From Enterococcus florum (lineage in GTDB: Bacteria > Bacillota > Bacilli > Lactobacillales > Enterococcaceae): a stretch of DNA of 64,000 nt. This document shows, piece by piece, positions 416-49,090 of the stretch (position 1 is the first letter of the stretch; every line of letters starts with the position of its first letter). The stretch lies in the NCBI RefSeq assembly GCF_004309355.1, contig NZ_BJCC01000038.1:1-64000 (forward strand), in the 5' to 3' direction. The notes below the pieces were generated by a model. That model was not told the origin of the DNA. It did not search any database and saw nothing but the letters and a program-made list of their open reading frames with translations. A program made the position numbers and the translations under genes.

Positions 416-1099
416 ATGAAAGTTTTGATTGTGGAAGATAATAAACAAATAATTGATGTACTAAATCGCTTTTTAAAAGAAGCGAATCATGAAACAGCCG
501 TTGTTTATGACGGAGGAAAAGCACTCGCTTCTTTTGATTCGTTCAAGCCGGATTTTATTTTGCTAGACATCATGCTGCCAAATGTCGATGGTTTTGAAAT
601 TTGTCGTAGGATTCGTGAAAAATCTACTGTGCCGATCATTATGATTACTGCAAAGTCAGAAGATGCTGATCGAATATTGGGATTAGAGGTTGGTGCGGAT
701 GATTACATCGTTAAGCCATTTTCTCCAGAGGAAGTATTGTCGCGGATCAACGCTATTTTACGCCGTATCCATTTTGAAAATGATCATCCACAAAAAGTCA
801 TCAAACTTGGCGAAATCAAATTACATTTGGGGAATCGCAAAGCATTTTATGAATCAAAGGAGATTGTATTAACTAAAAAAGAGTTCGAAATCTTGGCTTT
901 GTTCGCCAAGTATCCGAATAAAGTGTTCAATCGCAACAATCTTTTGGATGCAGTATGGGGCTACGATTATTATGGAGATAGCCGAACTGTGGATAGTCAT
1001 ATCAAACGCCTGCGGGCAAAGATTAAAAAAGCCGGTATCGACAATGATAGTATTGAAACGGTCTGGGGCGAGGGCTATCGCTGGGGTAGAGAAGAATGA
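416..1099 (+). CDS. OmpR/PhoB-family response regulator (receiver domain plus winged-helix DNA-binding domain)
   Basis: N-terminal receiver motifs (LIVEDN, DFILLDIMLP, the conserved K in VKPF) and a C-terminal trans_reg_C-like region (LTKKEFEILALF...RTVDSHIKRLRAKI...GYRW). It overlaps the next gene by 4 bp (ATGA). Confidence 0.9.
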   Translation: MKVLIVEDNKQIIDVLNRFLKEANHETAVVYDGGKALASFDSFKPDFILLDIMLPNVDGFEICRRIREKSTVPIIMITAKSEDADRILGLEVGADDYIVKPFSPEEVLSRINAILRRIHFENDHPQKVIKLGEIKLHLGNRKAFYESKEIVLTKKEFEILALFAKYPNKVFNRNNLLDAVWGYDYYGDSRTVDSHIKRLRAKIKKAGIDNDSIETVWGEGYRWGREE

Positions 1100-2547
1100 G
1101 AAAAATTTTTAATCGGCTCATCACACAATCAGTTATTCTATTACTTTTTTTCTCTGTGATCATAGCTTTAGTGTTTGGGGTATTATTTGCCAAGCAAACA
1201 GAGGATATGCATCAAGAAGAGATGATCAATCGCGCCGAACTCATCAGTAAGACGATGGAAGATTTTTTCAAATTGGAAACAAAGGATTCACAAGATCGCG
1301 GTGGCAAAAGCGGAGGTATGGGTGGCTATGGAGCCTTCATTCGTTTTCTAAATCAAATCGCAGGTGAAGAGGTTTGGGTCCTGAATAAACAAATGGAGCC
1401 AATTATCGAGGATCATCACAAAGACATCACGCGAAAAGAGCCGCCGGCAGGAACGCAAAAATTGATCACAGAAACCTATCAAACAAAGCAGACGCAGATC
1501 AAGAAAAAAAGGACATTCGTTCAACTGCAAGATCTGACGGTAACCACCCCGATCAAATCTGATGGAGTGGTCAAAGCAGTCGTCGTTATGCACTCGAAAG
1601 TGACGGCGATCCACAAAAATCAATTATCGGGCTATTTGATGCTGGTCATCAGCTTGCTGGCAGCGGTAGTTGTCGCTAGTCTACTGGCGTGGCGCCTGGC
1701 CAAACGCTTTATTCAGCCAATTTATACAATGAAGAAATATGTGGATGATCTTGCAAACAAAAAGTTTGATACAGAATTGAAACTAGATACGCACGATGAA
1801 CTTGAAGAGTTGGGAAATCAGCTTTCTATATTAAGTCAACGGTTATTAACAGCACGATTAGAACAAGAAAAGAAAAAGCAAGCAGAGAAAGACTTTCTTT
1901 CCCAAATATCACATGAACTACGAACACCGGTAATGGTTATTAAAAGCTCTTTAGAAACAATCAAAGCGGGGTATGTAGACAGTGATGATGAGAAAAAATA
2001 TTTAGATCAATTAATAGTCGAGGCGAATGGGTTGGAGAGGCTGGTTACAGACTTATTAGAACTAAGTAGATTAGAGTCAACGGAGTTTCAATTGCAAAAA
2101 GAACCGATTGATATACTAGATTGCATTGATGATGCGATGCGAAGTTACCGCGTAGCAATCAAAGAAAAGCAACAAACCCTTGAAATTAACAATAATTTGG
2201 CTGAGAGACGCTTGATTGAAGGCGACTATTTCAGAATGACACAATTATTCAAAATTCTTTTGGATAACGCGAACAAATATGCGCCAGCAAGTTCTTTAAT
2301 CACAGTGTCAGTGAAAGATAAAGAAAAAAATTTAGAAATTTCTGTTACAAATTTACAAATGGTCACTAATGAAGATACAGCAAATTTTTTCGATTCCTTT
2401 AAACGAGGAATGCATTCTTCAGAAGATGGAACAGGCTTAGGACTAGCAATTGCCAAGCAGGTAGTTGCTCGACACGATGGACAAATTTCAGCAGAATCAA
2501 TCAGTCAAACATTCAGGATAAAAATTCGTTTGCCTTATTTATCATGA
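1096..2547 (+). CDS. Sensor histidine kinase with two TM helices and a ~145-aa extracytoplasmic loop, followed by HAMP, HisKA and HATPase domains
   Basis: H-box SHELRTP, ATP-binding region NANKYAP...DGTGLGLAIAK, and two hydrophobic segments flanking a charged loop. Translationally coupled to the response regulator. Confidence 0.9.
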   Translation: MRKIFNRLITQSVILLLFFSVIIALVFGVLFAKQTEDMHQEEMINRAELISKTMEDFFKLETKDSQDRGGKSGGMGGYGAFIRFLNQIAGEEVWVLNKQMEPIIEDHHKDITRKEPPAGTQKLITETYQTKQTQIKKKRTFVQLQDLTVTTPIKSDGVVKAVVVMHSKVTAIHKNQLSGYLMLVISLLAAVVVASLLAWRLAKRFIQPIYTMKKYVDDLANKKFDTELKLDTHDELEELGNQLSILSQRLLTARLEQEKKKQAEKDFLSQISHELRTPVMVIKSSLETIKAGYVDSDDEKKYLDQLIVEANGLERLVTDLLELSRLESTEFQLQKEPIDILDCIDDAMRSYRVAIKEKQQTLEINNNLAERRLIEGDYFRMTQLFKILLDNANKYAPASSLITVSVKDKEKNLEISVTNLQMVTNEDTANFFDSFKRGMHSSEDGTGLGLAIAKQVVARHDGQISAESISQTFRIKIRLPYLS

Positions 2548-2600
2548 CACACTTTCGCCATATTCTCTTTCTAACATGTAAGAAAGAGGAGGAATGCAAC

Positions 2601-3209
2601 ATGAAAAAAATAATCGCAACAGCACTAGTTGGGGCGGCTTGCCTAATGAGCTTATCAGGGCTCACTGCAGAGGCTGCTCAAGTAAACACAAGAGGAGCGG
2701 GGGTGAACAAGCTTGGCTATTGTTTGATTACTGGCGAAGAACGTGTCTCTCAAGCAGATTGTCCGATTGGTCAAAATAGGTTTTTACCGACTCAAAACAA
2801 AACATTGACGTCTAATCAAAGCTTCTTGTTAGCCGCAGCTCGCCAACGTCCGCAAGATGGAACAGGTTATAAAAATGGACGTAATGGAGGAACCGGACAA
2901 AATGCCGGTAACGGCAAACAAGATGGAACAGGACCAGGCTGTGCGGATGGGCCACGTGCCGCCGATTGTCCATATTGGGAAGAAAAACAAACGAATAATG
3001 GTACGAATTCGACAGCTGGTGAAACGTTACAAAGCTTTTCGCAATCAAATACAACACAATCAAGCGCACACTCAGCCAATAAAGGTCATGGAAACGGAGT
3101 TCGTGATGGCAGCGGTGGCGGAACTGGAAAAAATGCAGGGAATGGTTTACGCCATGGTAGGGGCGCAGACGGACAAAGAGGACACAATGCAGGAACTTGC
3201 ATTAATTAG
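2601..3209 (+). CDS. Secreted protein rich in Gly, Asn, Thr, Cys and His with an internal repeat; function unknown
   Basis: Signal peptide MKKIIATALVGAACLMSLSGLTAEA, RBS AGAGGAGG 8 nt upstream of ATG 2601. Two copies of a G-GGTG-(Q/K)NAGNG motif. Six Cys and a His-rich C-terminus. No terminator between the kinase stop and this start. Confidence 0.65.
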   Translation: MKKIIATALVGAACLMSLSGLTAEAAQVNTRGAGVNKLGYCLITGEERVSQADCPIGQNRFLPTQNKTLTSNQSFLLAAARQRPQDGTGYKNGRNGGTGQNAGNGKQDGTGPGCADGPRAADCPYWEEKQTNNGTNSTAGETLQSFSQSNTTQSSAHSANKGHGNGVRDGSGGGTGKNAGNGLRHGRGADGQRGHNAGTCIN

Positions 3210-23882: not shown

Positions 23883-24032
23883 ATACTGTCACAAAGGGGA
23901 GCCTTCGGGCTGAGAATGAGGACACTCTAAACCCTGGTACCTGTTTCGGTCATTCGAGCGTAGGAATTGTGATGAAGTAAGATAGATTACTTCTCCTTTG
24001 TGAACCGTATGTTCAAAGAGGAGGATTTTTTT
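23883..24032 (+). promoter_or_regulatory. TPP (THI-box) riboswitch with an SD-sequestering expression platform, upstream of thiT
   Basis: GGGGAGCC...GGCTGAGA...ACCC...TACCTG...GGTCATTCGAGCGTAGGAA matches the conserved THI-element cores. Downstream, cttctcctttg can pair with the RBS caaagaggagg. Confidence 0.85.
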
Positions 24033-24617
24033 ATGCACGCAAACACACGAATCATGATGGAAGGAACGATCGTAGCCGCACTGGCCTTCATGCTTTCCTT
24101 GCTGCCGACCACTATTGGCAGCAGTCTGACGATCTCTTTAGGGATGATTCCGATGACCTTGTTCGGCCTGCGCCGCGGCGTTCGTCCGGCCTTGCTGTCT
24201 GCCTTCATTTGGGGCATCCTGCATTTCCCGGCCGGTGATGTGCAGTTTCTCAGTGTGATCCAGGTACTGATCGAATACCCGATCGCCTTCACCTTTGCAG
24301 GTTTTGCCGGTCTATATGCGCAGAAGGTACAAAAGGCCTTGCTGAATGACGATCAGCGAGCGGCAGTGAAAAACGTTGCTCTAGCTTCATTCATCGGAAC
24401 AGGTGCGCGATTCTTCTGGCATTTTATTGCCGGTGTTGTTTTTTGGGGAAGCTATGCGCTGTGGGGAATGAATCCGTGGCTCTTCTCTTTGGTAATGAAT
24501 GGAGCTGGCGGCATCGCCACTGCTGCGGTGACAGCAATCGTGTCCGTGATACTAGTCAAAAAGGTTCCGCAGCTCTTTTTGCCCAAAGACATGAAGTATG
24601 CTAAACAGCCGCGATAA
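24033..24617 (+). CDS. thiT: Thiamine ECF-transporter S component ThiT (YuaJ family)
   Basis: About 190-aa multi-TM protein directly downstream of a TPP riboswitch. Confidence 0.8.
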   Translation: MHANTRIMMEGTIVAALAFMLSLLPTTIGSSLTISLGMIPMTLFGLRRGVRPALLSAFIWGILHFPAGDVQFLSVIQVLIEYPIAFTFAGFAGLYAQKVQKALLNDDQRAAVKNVALASFIGTGARFFWHFIAGVVFWGSYALWGMNPWLFSLVMNGAGGIATAAVTAIVSVILVKKVPQLFLPKDMKYAKQPR

Positions 24618-42836: not shown

Positions 42837-44183
42837 GTGAAAAAAAGTTTGTTATCAGCATTAATGGTATGTTCAGTAACATTAAGTGCCTTAGCAGCTC
42901 CAGCAGTAGTTTCAGCTGATGAATATGATTCTAAGATTGCCGAACAAGACTCAAAAATCTCAACATTGCAAACGCAACAGGCAGATGTGCAAACTCAGAT
43001 CGGTTCATTAGAAAACGAAGTTGCTGCGATCAACACGAAAGCCCAAGACTTGTTGAACGAACAAGCAACCTTGCGTCAACATTCAGAAGATTTGCAAAAA
43101 CAGATCCAAACCTTGCAAGAACGGATTGAAAAGCGTTCGAAAGCGATTCAAGAGCAAGCGCGTGACGTGCAAGTGAAACAATCAACGTCAAATGTGATCG
43201 ATGTAGTATTGAATGCTGAATCTTTCTCTGATGCAGTTGGCCGCGTTCAAGCGATGAGTACGATCGTCAAAGCAAACAACGATCTAGTCGAACAGCAAAA
43301 AGCGGACAAGCAAGAAGTTGAACAAAAGGAAGCTGAAAACCAAAAACAAATTGAACAAATTGCTGCGAACCAAGCAGAATTGGAAGGCCAAAAGGGCAAT
43401 CTGATCGCGCTTCAAGCAGATTTGAACGTGCAAACAGCAACTTTAGCAGCAGAACAAGCAACAGCTGAAGGTGAGAGAGCAACCCTGCAGCAAGAAAAAA
43501 CTGCTGCAGAAGCAGAACAAGCGCGTATCCAAGAGGAAGCTCGCAAAGCTGCAGAAGCACAGCAAGCTGCTGCACAAGCAGAGGCTCAACGCCAGGCAGA
43601 AGAAGCTGCGAATCAACAAGAGCAGCAAGCTGCTGATAATAATCCAACTACGGATGAGGATCAAGTAACGCCGGATCCTGCTCCGACACCGGATCCAACT
43701 CCGACGCCAGAACCGGCGCCAGCGCCAGATCCAACACCGGCACCTGGGCCAGTAACGCCAAGCCCAACACCGGATCCAGATCCTGCACCAGCGCCAACAC
43801 CAACACCGAGTCCTGCACCAGCACCGTCTGGAAATGGCTCAGCAGTTGTTGCAGAAGCAATGCGTCACATTGGCAAACCTTACGTTTGGGGAGCAAAAGG
43901 ACCGGATTCATTTGACTGTTCAGGATTTACCAGTTACGTTTATCGCGTAGCAGCTGGACGTGAAATCGGTGGCTGGACTGTTCCACAAGAATCAGCTGGA
44001 ACAACGATCTCGATCAATCAAGCTCAAGCTGGGGACTTGCTATTCTGGGGCGGCCATGGCGGTACGTACCATGTGGCTATCGCTTTAGGTGGTGGACAAT
44101 ATGTTCATGCACCAGCGCCTGGACAAACAGTGACTGTTTCTTCTTATGCTTACTATGCACCGAGCTTTGCAGTACGCATGTAA
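42837..44183 (+). CDS. sagA: Secreted SagA-like peptidoglycan hydrolase: signal peptide, coiled coil, Pro/Thr/Asp-rich linker, and a C-terminal NlpC/P60 domain
   Basis: NlpC/P60 catalytic region (YVWGAKGPDSFDCSGF...YHVAIALG...H), a TPDPAPTP... linker, and position directly after mreCD as in E. faecium. Confidence 0.88.
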   Translation: MKKSLLSALMVCSVTLSALAAPAVVSADEYDSKIAEQDSKISTLQTQQADVQTQIGSLENEVAAINTKAQDLLNEQATLRQHSEDLQKQIQTLQERIEKRSKAIQEQARDVQVKQSTSNVIDVVLNAESFSDAVGRVQAMSTIVKANNDLVEQQKADKQEVEQKEAENQKQIEQIAANQAELEGQKGNLIALQADLNVQTATLAAEQATAEGERATLQQEKTAAEAEQARIQEEARKAAEAQQAAAQAEAQRQAEEAANQQEQQAADNNPTTDEDQVTPDPAPTPDPTPTPEPAPAPDPTPAPGPVTPSPTPDPDPAPAPTPTPSPAPAPSGNGSAVVAEAMRHIGKPYVWGAKGPDSFDCSGFTSYVYRVAAGREIGGWTVPQESAGTTISINQAQAGDLLFWGGHGGTYHVAIALGGGQYVHAPAPGQTVTVSSYAYYAPSFAVRM

Positions 44184-44804: not shown

Positions 44805-45540
44805 GTGATCGATATGTCCGGACACAGTAAGTGGCACAATATTCAAGGCAGAAAAAATGCTCAGGATGCCAAAAGAGGAAAAGTATTCCAAAAAATATCC
44901 CGAGAGATCTACATGGCGGCTAAATCCGGCGGCGGAAACCCAAACGAGAATCCTGCTCTGCGATTGGTGATGGACAAAGCAAAGGCGGCCAATATGCCAA
45001 ACGACAATGTCGAGCGTGCTGTCAAAAAAGCCACCTCTGTGGGTGAAGGCGAGAATTATGATGAGATCACTTATGAAGGATATGGTCCTGGCGGTGTGGC
45101 GATCTTGGTGCATACTCTGACCGATAATCGAAATCGAACGGCGACCAATGTTCGAGTAGCCTTTAATCGAAACGGCGGCAATCTTGGGGAGACCGGGTCG
45201 GTTAATTATCTGTTTGATCGCAAAGGATATATCGCGATCGAACGAAAAAATCTTGAGATATCTGAAGATGAGATGCTGGAAAAGGGAATCGAGGCTGGTG
45301 CAGAAGACCTGGAAACATCAGCGGAGGTATTTGAAGTCTATACGGCGCCAGAAGACTTTGTTGCGGTTCGTGATCAACTAACTGGAAAAAGATGGCTTTG
45401 ATTTAGCTCAAGCGGAACTGACGATGGTTCCGCAAACAACGGTCATGCTGGATGAATCGCAACGGGAAAAGTTGGATCGGTTGGTGGATACGCTGGAGGA
45501 AGACGAGGATGTATCAGAAGTGTTTACTTCAGCGGAATAA
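44805..45540 (+). pseudogene. yebC: YebC/PmpR-family transcriptional regulator, interrupted near the C-terminus by a +1 frameshift in an A5 run at 45386-45390
   Basis: [23 protein letters not shown]... is canonical YebC. Frame 1 stops at 45399-45401. The shifted frame continues [50 protein letters not shown]-stop at 45540, which is the canonical YebC C-terminus. Confidence 0.8.
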
Positions 45541-45743
45541 ATAAACTATTTGTAAAACGATCATTTCAAAAATATAATTATTGAGAAATGATCAATTTTG
45601 ATAGCTTTATATTATTTGAATTTTTTCTCCTATACAATTTGATATACTGTGGCAAAGGTAGATGTTTCGTTTCGGAACATCTACTTTTGTATTTAAGTAT
45701 TTTTTTGAATGGGGGGGTGTATCAAATCGTGATTGAACGTCTT

Positions 45744-46817
45744 ATGGAAATTGCCCATATTTTGTTGACGTTTAGTGCATGGATAATCATTTTGTTTTTT
45801 ACGAATCGCAATTATTCACTATCAAAGAAGAAAGTGATGCTACTTATTTTTTTTACTGCAACGGTACAAATCTGCACATATGTATATTACTGTGCGAATT
45901 TCAGAACTTGTTTGGCTTCCTTCCAATCGTTCATCATGAGTGTCTGTTTGTTCCGTGTTGCCATGATTTTCTTTATTTTTCAAAAGCAATTCTTTCAAAA
46001 TCTTTTTTATACTTTTTGTATTTTACTTGTGATGACGTTGGCTCAAGGAAATGCAACGCTGATCAAAACTTGTCTAGAAGAAACCACTTTCTATACGCAA
46101 GTGATCTACCACTCAGTTGTTTTGACCACATTGATCCTAACTTTACCTCCTGTCGTATTTCTGCTGAGACGTGTGCATGGTTCCTTGCTGCCGGCGTACG
46201 AAATGGCTGTTTGGAAGGTCGCATGGGTCATGCCATTCATATTATTTGTTATTATGTATATCACTTCACCCACCTTTGTTATAAATCGAATGAACTATGC
46301 AGGTGCGGTTCGAGCCCCGGTCGTTTTGATTGGACGTTTTTTTCTGTTAAGTGAATTCATTTTTCTTATTTATTACTTTGGAAAAATAGTGAACGTTCTC
46401 GGAGAAGCTGAAAAAAGCAAACAAAAAGAACAAGAGGCTGTACGGCGCGCGCAAAAGGCAGAACGTGATTTGGAACAACACCGTTTACTTACAAGTGCCA
46501 TCCCTAAAAAACATTTAATTGCAAAAGGCCCATTTACGATGAACACACAATCTGTACAGGCCTTCTTTAAAAATGATAATCTGCAATTGACGCCAAAAGA
46601 ATTTGCCTTATTGCTTTTCTTTATCCAGCATGAAAATGAAACTGTCAGCAGAGAAGAAATATTCGAAAAAATTTGGCAAATGCCTTTGACCGATAAAGAC
46701 AATTCGTTAAATAATACGGTTTCTCGCTTACGAGGGAAAATAATACACAGCGAATATCGAATTACGGCGGTTAGAAAAAAGGGTTATCGATTTGAAAAGG
46801 ACGATTGCTTAAAATAA
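45744..46817 (+). CDS. Polytopic membrane protein (about 7 TM) with a C-terminal OmpR/PhoB-type winged-helix DNA-binding domain; a membrane-integrated one-component regulator
   Basis: Seven hydrophobic segments, a charged linker (EAEKSKQKEQEAVRRAQKAERDLEQHRL), then LTPKEFALLLFFIQHENETVSREEIFEKIWQ...NSLNNTVSRLRGKI...TAVRKKGYRFE, which is a trans_reg_C signature. GTG 45717 and GTG 45729 are alternative starts. The gene is AT-rich relative to its neighbours. Confidence 0.7.
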   Translation: MEIAHILLTFSAWIIILFFTNRNYSLSKKKVMLLIFFTATVQICTYVYYCANFRTCLASFQSFIMSVCLFRVAMIFFIFQKQFFQNLFYTFCILLVMTLAQGNATLIKTCLEETTFYTQVIYHSVVLTTLILTLPPVVFLLRRVHGSLLPAYEMAVWKVAWVMPFILFVIMYITSPTFVINRMNYAGAVRAPVVLIGRFFLLSEFIFLIYYFGKIVNVLGEAEKSKQKEQEAVRRAQKAERDLEQHRLLTSAIPKKHLIAKGPFTMNTQSVQAFFKNDNLQLTPKEFALLLFFIQHENETVSREEIFEKIWQMPLTDKDNSLNNTVSRLRGKIIHSEYRITAVRKKGYRFEKDDCLK

Positions 46818-46943
46818 GCTTATCAATTCTGGTAGGTTAAAAAAAATTCTGATATTAAGACTATTCATTCGTTATACTAGGCAACGATATCCAAGCAGTT
46901 TATTGAGCAGACTGTTTTAATTCATTGTCTAAGGAGAACGTCT

Positions 46944-47633
46944 ATGAAAAAAAGGAAACAATCGGTACATGCACCCGTTTCCCTGATCGCACATACCGAA
47001 CGTTTTTCGATGGCGGCTGAACGCTATCGAGGAATCCGCAGCAACATCCATTTTTCTGCTGCAGGCAAAGAGATCCAAACACTGGTGGTTACCTCAGCTG
47101 GACCAGATGAAGGGAAATCAACAACGGCCGTAAATTTGGCGATCGTTTTTGCGGATTCGGGAAGCCGGGTGTTATTGGTGGATGCAGATTTGAGAAAACC
47201 TAGTATTGCGTTAAGTTTTCAGATGTTGAATACGAGGGGATTAAGTACTTTGCTGATCGGACATGATGCAACGGTTCAATCATGTTGTCAGGCATCTGGG
47301 TTGGAAAATCTTATGGTCTTGACCAGCGGCCCACTGCCGCCGAATCCCTCTGAACTATTGGGATCAAAAAGAATGCTGGACCTTTTAGAAGAAATGAAAG
47401 CCGATTACGATTACATCATTTTTGACCTGCCACCGGTGGTAACCGTGACGGATGCGCAGATTTTAGCGGCCTATTCGGATGGAACAATCTTGGTTGTTCG
47501 TGAACGAAAAACCCGGAGGCAGGAGCTGGCCAAAGCAAAGGAACTGCTTACGCTTGCTAGTGCAAACGTGCTAGGAGTGGTTTATAACGGGCAAAAAAGG
47601 GAAAAACTAACAGAAGATTACTACATGCAGTAA
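46944..47633 (+). CDS. Bacterial tyrosine kinase cytoplasmic ATPase subunit (CpsD/CapB/YwqD-like), with no adjacent CpsC/CapA-type partner
   Basis: Walker A GPDEGKSTT, Walker A' VLLVDADLR, Walker B IIFDLPP, and a C-terminus ending ...EDYYMQ. RBS AAGGAG. Confidence 0.85.
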   Translation: MKKRKQSVHAPVSLIAHTERFSMAAERYRGIRSNIHFSAAGKEIQTLVVTSAGPDEGKSTTAVNLAIVFADSGSRVLLVDADLRKPSIALSFQMLNTRGLSTLLIGHDATVQSCCQASGLENLMVLTSGPLPPNPSELLGSKRMLDLLEEMKADYDYIIFDLPPVVTVTDAQILAAYSDGTILVVRERKTRRQELAKAKELLTLASANVLGVVYNGQKREKLTEDYYMQ

Positions 47634-47682
47634 AAAAAGAACCGCAGATCAATGGACGAATCCTTGATCTGCGGTTCTTTAA
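47634..47682. terminator. Bidirectional terminator between convergent genes
   Basis: aagaaccgcagatcaa...ttgatctgcggttctt. Confidence 0.8.
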
Positions 47683-47686
47683 CTCT

Positions 47687-49090
47687 CTAAAAGACTAACA
47701 CGGGTGTCCCGACTTCAACGAGCGGGAACATTTGAGCCATGACGCTTGGCGGAGTATTGACGCAACCGTGGGAACCACGAGAAAGCCATAGGTCACCGCC
47801 GTATGCTGGTTGCCAGTCAGAATCGTGCAACCCCACACCGGTCCAATCGATCGGCATCCAATATTGAACAGGGCTGGCATATTTGCTGCCATCGTCATTT
47901 AATCCACGCAAAACTTTGTTGGTCTCCTTGCTCCACACATAATTGACACCAGGAGGAGTAGGAGAAGAGGGTTTTCCGCTGACAATGTCTGTTTCCAGCG
48001 CTACGTTGCCGTCCTTGTATAACCACATGTGCTGGTTTTGCAAGTCGACCTCCACGTAAGTATTGCCGATCAAAGGCTTATCTGCCGTTGTTGCACCTGT
48101 AACGATCGGTGAACGAGTGAAATCTTTGCCCTGCAGAATCTGTTCCTTCAACGCTTGTGCTTCTTCTGTCGTATTGATGGTCCAGCCATAAGCCCCGGCA
48201 GGAACTTCAACATCGCCGCGGCGGGTACTCTTGAACAGCGTTGGATTTGTGCTGGTATTGTATTGTTGTCCTAAAGTTGCAACGTAAGCTTCTACTTTAG
48301 CCTGGTCAAGGTCCATTTTTCCTTCGCCGTCGACAGTCAGCCAATCGTTGATCTGCTCAGTCGGAATCTGGAAGGTATTGCCGTTGATGCTGTATGTCGC
48401 GTTGATCTTTGCCACAGCATTCATTTCGTTCAAGGATTCTTTAAGCTGCGGATTATCCTTTTTGATTTCAGGCTTTACTTGATAATCGGTTAAATCGATT
48501 TCGTGCTTGCCGGAAGAAACAGCTTCAGAAAAAGCTTGTGCGGCAGCATCAACATTGATCGTGTTTCCTTGTTTTTCAGGGATGATGGCAAACCCATCTG
48601 CCTGTTTTTCGATGGTGGCATTTTCTGTTGGAGTACGTGTTTCATTTGACTGGTTCAGTTCGTTTTTGATCGTTTCAACTGTCGCATTCAACATGTTTTC
48701 GTCCAAAGAATTGCCAGCGACATCTTGTTTCTCAGCCGCAAACACCAATTGAGGACCCCAACGAAAAGGATTTTGACTGGTTTTGATCTTTTCCAGCTCG
48801 GGCTGGTAATCTGCCTTCCAGCCAAGGTCGGCGCGATTGATCTCTTTCCAGTTCTCACCGTTGTCCTTGATCTCAAAAGGCGATTCACTTAACTCTTTTT
48901 CCATCTTTTTGCTGGCCGCTTCCACGGTCATGCCGCTGATCTCGATACCGTTGACGACGGTATTAGGCAAAAAGTGCTTACTATAATATGTACTGCGTGC
49001 GGCGTAGCCACCGACTAAAAGGACTAAAAGGCCTAATGCGATAACGATACCGATTTTGGAACGCCGTGGTCTTCTGTCAGATCTTCTCAT
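47687..49090 (-). CDS. L,D-transpeptidase (YkuD domain, Ldt_fm-like)
   Basis: N-terminal TM, a long linker, and C-terminal catalytic motifs HGCVN and SRGSHGC, like the 466-aa E. faecium Ldt_fm. Confidence 0.88.
   Translation of the reverse strand: MRRSDRRPRRSKIGIVIALGLLVLLVGGYAARSTYYSKHFLPNTVVNGIEISGMTVEAASKKMEKELSESPFEIKDNGENWKEINRADLGWKADYQPELEKIKTSQNPFRWGPQLVFAAEKQDVAGNSLDENMLNATVETIKNELNQSNETRTPTENATIEKQADGFAIIPEKQGNTINVDAAAQAFSEAVSSGKHEIDLTDYQVKPEIKKDNPQLKESLNEMNAVAKINATYSINGNTFQIPTEQINDWLTVDGEGKMDLDQAKVEAYVATLGQQYNTSTNPTLFKSTRRGDVEVPAGAYGWTINTTEEAQALKEQILQGKDFTRSPIVTGATTADKPLIGNTYVEVDLQNQHMWLYKDGNVALETDIVSGKPSSPTPPGVNYVWSKETNKVLRGLNDDGSKYASPVQYWMPIDWTGVGLHDSDWQPAYGGDLWLSRGSHGCVNTPPSVMAQMFPLVEVGTPVLVF

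Follow-up and report, generated by a model that had tools for sequence, protein, structure and literature searches.

Introduction

Does a DNA-binding membrane protein encoded just ahead of a bacterial tyrosine kinase work with that kinase, or do the two genes merely share an address? The question is raised by a locus of Enterococcus florum, a flower-associated enterococcus. The locus lies in a stretch of 64,000 nucleotides (contig NZ_BJCC01000038.1 of RefSeq assembly GCF_004309355.1, positions 1 to 64,000 of the forward strand), hereafter called the window. Its first gene encodes a protein with seven predicted transmembrane helices (7-TM) and a C-terminal winged helix-turn-helix (wHTH) domain, termed here the regulator; its second encodes a bacterial tyrosine kinase (BY-kinase), termed here the kinase. 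An earlier note on this DNA had proposed that the two form a novel signaling module. In this report, we find that the regulator looks like a two-component system that has collapsed into a single transmembrane transcription regulator, that its putative sensor domain is shared with histidine kinases, and that both genes occupy a small insertion peculiar to E. florum.

Architecture of the regulator

The regulator gene and its parts are laid out as follows.

45588-46817, plus strand: open reading frame of the regulator (open-reading-frame list)
45729-46817, plus strand: regulator gene, GTG start, 362 aa (homologue N-termini, RefSeq)
45729..46394, plus strand: 7-TM sensor domain, residues 1-222 (hydropathy, model, homologues)
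46395..46505, plus strand: helical linker, residues 223-259, continuous with TM7 (model; EAE motif at its start)
46506..46817, plus strand: OmpR/PhoB-type winged-helix domain, residues 260-362 and stop codon (Trans_reg_C)

The GTG at 45729 lines up with the N-termini of all homologues (MxExLLE...), and RefSeq entry WP_175580160.1 is the same 362-aa protein; judged by these alignments, this GTG is almost certainly the true start. The position given by the earlier note, 45711, falls inside a run of seven G (45711-45717) that precedes the GTG and is not a start codon. A 409-aa protein beginning at the ATG at 45588 was also considered and is ruled out: the homologues begin at GTG 45729, the extension would span a strong hairpin (see below), and RefSeq has 362 residues.

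A hydropathy scan finds seven TM segments in the regulator. The C-terminal domain matches Trans_reg_C (PF00486) at residues 284-355 of 362 (331-402 of the open reading frame) with an E-value of 1.5e-18; the score is 67.1 bits where the cut-off is 26.2, and the match extends over positions 3-77 of the 77 in the profile. It shows the OmpR/PhoB fold: an N-terminal beta-sheet, three helices and a C-terminal beta-hairpin wing. An AlphaFold model, built on 3 sequences and of low confidence (pLDDT 67.7, pTM 0.38; weak in the membrane part), has seven membrane helices, the last of which runs unbroken over residues 195-257 into the linker, followed by a canonical winged helix. Hydropathy, Pfam and the model thus bear out the earlier description of about seven TM helices, a helical linker and a C-terminal wHTH domain. 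The loop charges fit an N-out/C-in topology for the predicted membrane insertion. The linker ends in an IPxxxL junction like that of response regulators, and the longer form of this junction, IPxxxLxxGxFT, matches the receiver-to-wHTH linkers of the response regulators P0002 and the one at locus L003.

Pfam searches found no REC (PF00072), HisKA or HATPase_c domain in the regulator, and NCBIfam likewise found no REC; the NCBIfam response-regulator models match just the C-terminal ~100 residues, far under their cut-offs. The TM domain has no Pfam family match at E-values up to 0.01, in agreement with the earlier note, which did not recognize its family. A role in anti-phage defense is ruled out, given that the regulator has no match in PADLOC and that the kinase match there is merely at the level of the P-loop.

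With a DNA-binding domain and predicted TM helices in one polypeptide, the regulator falls within the transmembrane transcription regulators (TTRs), a class defined by a DNA-binding domain and at least one TM region in the same protein (PMC10269533). The fusion had been called unusual and without precedent. The lack of precedent is overstated, as TTRs are widespread (PMC10269533); what is new is the sensor family.

A rare sensor shared with histidine kinases

The TM domain alone was used in an exhaustive HMMER search of 1.84 billion cluster representatives. The domain is extremely rare, with only 7 hits. One of these is a truncated GenBank version of the E. florum regulator itself. Two others, P0009 (35% identity) and P0010 (29%), are full-length proteins of the 7TM-linker-wHTH type that align end to end with the regulator. 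In three more (P0012, P0013 and P0015), the same TM domain precedes HisKA and HATPase_c, making these proteins histidine kinases. The remaining hit, P0014, is a protein of 251 aa with no Pfam match. The domain is therefore fused to a wHTH in three clusters and otherwise to HisKA-HATPase_c kinases.

Both kinds of fusion carry the motifs FRxxxxQNxF, TLPPxxxxLRR and WRxxWxxP. Further, EAExx(K/R) stands directly after TM7 in the regulator and in the histidine-kinase homologues alike. The gene for P0013 (locus L006) is followed by an overlapping gene for an OmpR-type response regulator, and the wHTH of this response regulator shares 40% identity with that of E. florum; overall, the wHTH is matched best (43-46%) by response regulators whose genes adjoin those of multi-TM histidine kinases. 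The linker of P0010 is shorter by exactly seven residues, or one heptad (alignment A1, columns 233-239), than those of the regulator and P0009, a difference that would be expected if helical register matters.

It was this search that brought the family to light. Word-indexed searches with the full regulator, or with a 3-sequence profile, returned only wHTH matches to response regulators, plus P0010 and a metagenomic protein, P0001. The family alignment found no relative among GTDB species genomes and none among viral contigs, and among metagenome contigs only an ordinary response regulator. P0001 joins a 7TMR-DISM_7TM domain to Trans_reg_C, and its linker and wHTH are 38% identical to those of the regulator (E 3e-28). 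Like the regulator, it has 7 TM helices, a helical linker and a C-terminal wHTH; unlike it, its TM domain is of the 7TMR-DISM type, with no detectable relation to that of E. florum. With its linker and wHTH homologous and its membrane domain unrelated, P0001 shows that such rewiring has occurred more than once. The idea that the E. florum TM domain is itself 7TMR-DISM_7TM (PF07695) is rejected at this sensitivity: there is no Pfam match, and hhalign, applied to the 7-sequence TM alignment and three 7TMR-DISM-type TM regions, gave a probability of 0.35%, a crude comparison of small alignments.

P0009 and P0010 come from metagenome contigs, and the neighbors on the P0009 side include spoVG, purR and glmU. 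The P0009 gene adjoins pth-mfd with a PrsA-like gene between (L002, 5440-10827), and pth-mfd is also within a few kb of the E. florum regulator, probably by coincidence. The P0010 contig (L003, 132-1316 and 1383-4021) carries a large serine recombinase together with, just upstream, a 7TMR-DISM histidine kinase/OmpR regulator pair, and genes for GLUG/Big_4 surface proteins lie downstream; that stretch may be a mobile element.

How does the regulator compare with known membrane-bound transcription factors? Those of the ToxR/CadC/TcpP type begin with a cytoplasmic wHTH, cross the membrane in one TM helix and end in a periplasmic sensor, whereas the E. florum protein has a C-terminal wHTH, a 7-TM bundle with short loops and a long helix continuous with TM7. 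It is closer in kind to polytopic TTRs such as BcrR of Enterococcus faecalis, which likewise combine a DNA-binding domain and several TM helices in one polypeptide, a design that implies that sensing takes place within or at the membrane. In BcrR, the HTH is N-terminal and of the XRE type, and four TM helices make up the C-terminal part. The regulator differs from TTRs of this type in that its 7-TM domain is of an undescribed family with three wHTH-fused clusters. TTRs are recognized as a widespread class, 27% of whose members contain at least three TM regions (Demey et al. 2023, PMC10269533). The histidine kinases P0012, P0013 and P0015 have a homologous sensor with the same motifs as the regulator, but they retain the DHp/CA core and a separate receiver, neither of which the E. 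florum protein has. Taken by its sequence relationships, the putative sensor domain is an undescribed family, set within a transmembrane-regulator design that was already known.

The kinase is an orphan in its locus

The kinase gene and its signature motifs are as follows.

46944-47633, plus strand: CpsD/CapB-type BY-kinase, 229 aa (TIGR01007, CapB structures)
47100-47123, plus strand: Walker A, GPDEGKST (invariant columns of alignment A2)
47169-47201, plus strand: Walker A', VLLVDADLRKP (invariant columns of alignment A2)
47412-47435, plus strand: Walker B, IIFDLPP (invariant columns of alignment A2)
47619-47624, plus strand: terminal YY (C-terminus DYYMQ)

The kinase matches TIGR01007 with an E-value of 3.3e-63 and 212.9 bits (curated cut-off, 108), and structures of the S. 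aureus CapA-CapB chimera match it at 1e-51. Together with the alignment, these results confirm the earlier assignment to the CpsD/CapB/YwqD type with Walker A, A' and B motifs and a C-terminal YY. E26, R29 and R32 also occupy invariant columns (alignment A2); they correspond to E23, R26 and R29 in helix alpha2 of CapB, which make subunit contacts in the octameric CapAB ring (PMC2422856). With its catalytic and oligomerization motifs intact, the kinase looks functional. Two features set it apart from its relatives. The C-terminus, DYYMQ, has two tyrosines, as opposed to YYY or YYYY in 12 enterococcal homologues, with Y225 replaced by D; and there are five lone substitutions at otherwise invariant columns.

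Its nearest relatives are enterococcal CpsD proteins (60-63% identical), and it is equidistant (55-63%) from all enterococcal CpsD sampled. No homologue of Wzz/CpsC (PF02706), CpsB or a cps-type LCP was found in the 64-kb window by tblastn with enterococcal queries, the best Wzz match having an E-value of 7.4. By comparison, the closest kinase relatives with readable context, two from Enterococcus sp. AZ109 and one from E. xiangfangensis, are encoded directly behind a Wzz gene (3/3). The kinase is an orphan in its locus, as far as the window extends, and the earlier observation that no CpsC-type activator lies upstream can be widened to the entire stretch. E. florum has a second CpsD paralogue (P0021), 60% identical and located on another contig.

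The kinase is thus a clear homologue of the catalytic partners in CapA/CapB, CpsC/CpsD and TkmA/PtkA, with the Walker A, A' and B motifs and E26/R29/R32, but unlike such split BY-kinases, it has no modulator gene within 64 kb, and its terminal tyrosines number two instead of three or four. In lacking a flanking modulator while another kinase copy exists in the genome, it resembles the orphan BY-kinases described previously (Shi et al. 2014, PMC4007543). It differs from those reported in having a gene for a transmembrane regulator in the upstream position, an arrangement not reported before.

An insertion specific to E. florum

Both genes are from E. florum, and each protein is the sole member of its 90% identity cluster. 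Using the neighboring L,D-transpeptidase gene (ldt) as a probe, we fetched 33 related loci. The gene order in 17 Enterococcus species is mreC-mreD-sagA-like-vanZ-yebC, then the convergent ldt-ldh, then pth-mfd. In all 17 of these other species, yebC directly adjoins ldt and both E. florum genes are absent; the two flanking genes are separated by ~45-120 bp, and in the five relatives that were read, this spacer contains one bidirectional terminator. Nucleotide homology to four related species (L009-L012) ends at 45540-45546 and restarts at 47671-47688. The adjacency of yebC and ldt elsewhere and these breakpoints identify the two-gene segment as an insertion specific to E. florum:

45541..47686, no strand assigned: E. 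florum-specific insertion, 2,146 bp, between convergent yebC and ldt (homology breakpoints)

It contains only the regulator gene, the kinase gene and their upstream regions. No direct or inverted repeat of at least 8 nt flanks its borders, and no mobile-element scar was found there. The same spacer holds an AraC-type regulator gene in Ca. Enterococcus huntleyi (L028, 9545-10534) and, in E. asini, a DinB-like gene and a gene for a YoaK-like membrane protein (L029, 9565-10780). The presence of these unrelated genes marks the yebC-ldt spacer as a variable site.

The regulator gene has a GC content of 0.368 and a GC content at third codon positions (GC3) of 0.369; the kinase gene has a GC3 of 0.448, and the mean for genes of the window is 0.489 (sd 0.070). 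The regulator gene is AT-richer than its neighbors, as had been noticed, and its AT-richness goes beyond membrane-protein composition. The earlier suggestion of horizontal acquisition is correct, with the amendment that it applies to both genes, which form the 2.1-kb yebC-ldt insertion absent from 17 Enterococcus species.

Next to the insertion, yebC itself (44805-45540) is disrupted. A stop at 45401 closes its first frame at 198 aa, and the conserved C-terminus (...SEVFTSAE*) continues in another frame to 45540 after a 1-nt frameshift near 45385-45400. The gene is either a pseudogene or bears an assembly indel.

Expression signals around the two genes

The candidate signals within and at the end of the insertion are listed here.

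45550..45578, plus strand: promoter-like TTGTAA-17-TATAAT upstream of the regulator (10/12 consensus positions)
45652..45690, plus strand: strong hairpin, then UUUUGUAUUU (U-run); -25.8 kcal/mol, z -8.6 (inverted repeat I7)
46818..46943, plus strand: spacer of 126 nt between the regulator and kinase genes
46827 and 46847, plus strand: TTCTG(G/A)TA repeats in the spacer, 20 nt apart
46849-46878, plus strand: promoter-like CTGATA-18-TATACT in the spacer (consensus match)
46931-46936, plus strand: AAGGAG ribosome-binding site of the kinase, in the spacer
47636..47680, no strand assigned: bidirectional terminator hairpin of the kinase and convergent ldt genes; -30.6 kcal/mol, z -9.3

Strong terminators flank the pair. 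The hairpin at 47636-47680 holds the position of the single yebC/ldt terminator of related species. That at 45652-45690, which none of 200 shuffles matched in folding (0/200), could be either the terminator of yebC in a new place or an attenuator in the leader of the regulator gene. No known RNA or leader riboswitch was found by Rfam, whose only match in the window is a TPP riboswitch elsewhere. A folding scan finds no terminator in the spacer between the two genes. The earlier note had placed the kinase gene 127 bp downstream, with no terminator and a TATACT promoter; the terminator is indeed absent and the site does exist, but the spacer is 126 nt and promoter-like sites occur in this region at chance frequency (6 found, 5.8 expected).

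Some sequence elements recur upstream of both genes. The TTCTG(G/A)TA repeats overlap the -35 element of the promoter-like site of the kinase, although the motif was defined post hoc. The related 9-mer TTYTGRTAK (45596, 46827, 46847), a pattern also chosen post hoc, occurs 10 times in the window against 4.6 expected. A 17-mer common to both upstream regions (45591-45607 and 46822-46838) is identical at 14/17 positions, a level reached by 13/300 shuffles. As candidate operator sites, these shared motifs are a weak lead.

A proposed origin from a two-component system and probable trans-activation of the kinase

These observations can be assembled into an explanation of the locus that we consider, as a whole, somewhat better than an even bet: the regulator would be a one-component regulator derived from a collapsed two-component system, and the kinase would be linked to it transcriptionally and activated in trans. 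By its domain content and relatives, the regulator looks like a transmembrane one-component transcription regulator. Most likely, it descends from a gene pair for a histidine kinase and a response regulator from which the kinase core and the receiver disappeared, so that the sensor helix came to be joined straight to the DNA-binding domain. The 7-TM bundle would sense a membrane or envelope cue, and the signal would run along the TM7-linker helix, probably a dimeric signaling helix, to the DNA-binding domains, which would bind DNA without phosphotransfer. The regulator would act on promoters near the membrane, probably including that of its own two-gene locus.

The kinase gene would have arrived in the same 2.1-kb insertion and could be co-transcribed with the regulator gene. 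Their link would most likely be transcriptional, with the sensor-regulator setting the amount of kinase. The kinase itself would be activated by a CpsC/Wzz-type modulator encoded elsewhere in the genome. Because E. florum has a second CpsD paralogue, trans-activation by a CpsC from elsewhere is the conservative reading. There is precedent for such an arrangement: for orphan catalytic-domain BY-kinases, it has been suggested that they borrow the modulator of a different kinase encoded in their genome (PMC4007543), and for Cap5B2 of S. aureus, the non-cognate Cap5A1 is a better activator than the cognate Cap5A2 (PMC2422856).

Several points weigh against this explanation. A terminator-like hairpin (45652-45690) stands only 39 nt upstream of the regulator start with no clear promoter after it, and the sole good promoter-like site (45550-45578) precedes the hairpin, which hence sits between that site and the start codon; this makes expression of the regulator hard to account for. 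The motifs shared by the two upstream regions are weak and were defined post hoc. The 7TM-wHTH family comprises only three sequence clusters, so arguments from conservation are thin, and the AlphaFold model of the regulator is of the low confidence given above. A CpsC gene beside the second E. florum kinase is assumed. Finally, GC3 differs between the two genes (0.369 for the regulator, 0.448 for the kinase), and they may therefore have separate histories and no functional link.

Alternative explanations

Taken to its end, that last point leads to the view that the two genes are fortuitous neighbors, having arrived separately at a variable site without any functional link, the kinase perhaps being a redundant or idle cps paralogue. 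Other species do hold unrelated genes at this very site. In addition to the difference in codon composition, the ancestries diverge: the relatives of the kinase are enterococcal (60-63%), whereas the nearest relative of the regulator is 35% identical and the metagenome contigs of its kind carry spoVG, purR and glmU. The kinase gene also has its own ribosome-binding site and promoter-like site, and the reduction of its tyrosine cluster to YY and its five lone substitutions at otherwise invariant columns could befit an idle copy. However, two insertions in the same orientation into a spacer of 45-120 bp are less parsimonious than one, no terminator separates the genes, and the kinase reading frame is intact with all catalytic motifs. 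On balance, we hold mere adjacency to be unlikely, though it deserves a serious hearing.

The earlier note had favored a far closer connection. It proposed that the regulator linker replaces CpsC and activates the kinase, which then phosphorylates tyrosines of the wHTH, yielding a membrane-tethered regulator gated by tyrosine phosphorylation. In its favor, the genes share a strand and are separated by 126 nt that hold no terminator, both fall within a single small insertion peculiar to the species, and the regulator gene occupies the position of CpsC in canonical loci. BY-kinases of Firmicutes are also known to accept alternative activators and to phosphorylate transcription factors, as with SalA and FatR in the case of PtkA (PMC5035731, PMC3814354). 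In particular, SalA activates PtkA without being a Wzz protein (PMC5035731), so activation by the linker is not an absurd idea.

The homologues of the regulator speak against such a module. Only 1/3 of the known 7TM-wHTH members has a kinase neighbor: no BY-kinase lies near P0009 or P0010, whose neighbors are unrelated or of unknown function, and the co-occurrence that the module would predict is absent at both of these loci. The EAExx(K/R) helix is common to the histidine-kinase homologues, which argues that the linker and its motif are an inherited signaling helix and not a kinase activator. The cytoplasmic tyrosines Y215, Y343 and Y353 are conserved in the kinase-less homologues and are not specific to E. 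florum. In local alignments, the linker resembles enterococcal CpsC tails no more than noise would allow (the score is reached by 19-26 of 500 shuffles), and the core CpsC activator segment scores below the shuffle mean. The kinase retains E26/R29/R32, which would better suit an octameric partner of the Wzz type than a regulator that is probably dimeric, and the codon composition of the two genes differs. The proposed activation and phosphorylation steps consequently find no support, and the evidence for coupling is positional only, from one genome. We judge the module improbable. Equally doubtful is a true signaling cassette in the broader sense, in which the regulator would serve as a non-Wzz activator or scaffold and either tyrosine phosphorylation or the ATP-dependent oligomeric state of the kinase would gate DNA binding. 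If it were true, it would represent a membrane-tethered transcription factor under the control of a bacterial tyrosine kinase, with a sensor recycled from a histidine kinase.

That the 7-TM and wHTH portions are separate genes joined by an assembly indel is barely credible: the frameshift near 45385-45400 in the neighboring yebC does attest to at least one indel in the assembly or strain, but the 362-aa protein is the one annotated in RefSeq, the model shows the linker helix as an unbroken extension of TM7, and P0009 and P0010, from two independent metagenome assemblies, align with the regulator end to end and encode the same colinear protein, as befits the single gene that the earlier note had assumed.

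Other features of the window

The LMW-PTP gene (22930) and the PP2C/PASTA-kinase genes (35891) that had been pointed out as further phospho-signaling components are present at those positions. The TPP riboswitch (Rfam RF00059; 54.5 bits, just over the gathering score) lies at 23885-23983, immediately before a gene for a thiamine transporter of the ThiT/YuaJ type (24000-24617). Near the start of the window, 416-3209 encodes three proteins: a response regulator of the OmpR type, a histidine kinase with HisKA and one of 221 aa without a Pfam match; the GC3 of these genes is 0.32-0.37 against a mean of 0.49, and they may be another acquired block. Low GC3 (0.32) is also seen, despite high GC1 and GC2, in the gene at 42837-44183 for a SagA/PcsB-like secreted NlpC/P60 hydrolase with a long low-complexity Pro/Thr/Ala linker.

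Conclusions

With three known clusters of the 7TM-wHTH family and the pairing with a kinase seen in a single genome, the general importance of this locus is uncertain. The kinase represents a further orphan catalytic-domain BY-kinase, and its position behind a membrane regulator furnishes a cheap and testable hypothesis of an alternative activator.

The regulator, for its part, would illustrate cleanly, in a natural protein, the collapse of a two-component system into a one-component system. One rare 7-TM sensor feeds a HisKA core in some proteins and, in others, an OmpR-type wHTH without any intermediary, apparently via the same signaling helix. Comparing the two architectures offers a way to ask how the movement of TM helices is read by two very different outputs, and the regulator adds a putative, undescribed sensor family to the transmembrane transcription regulators.

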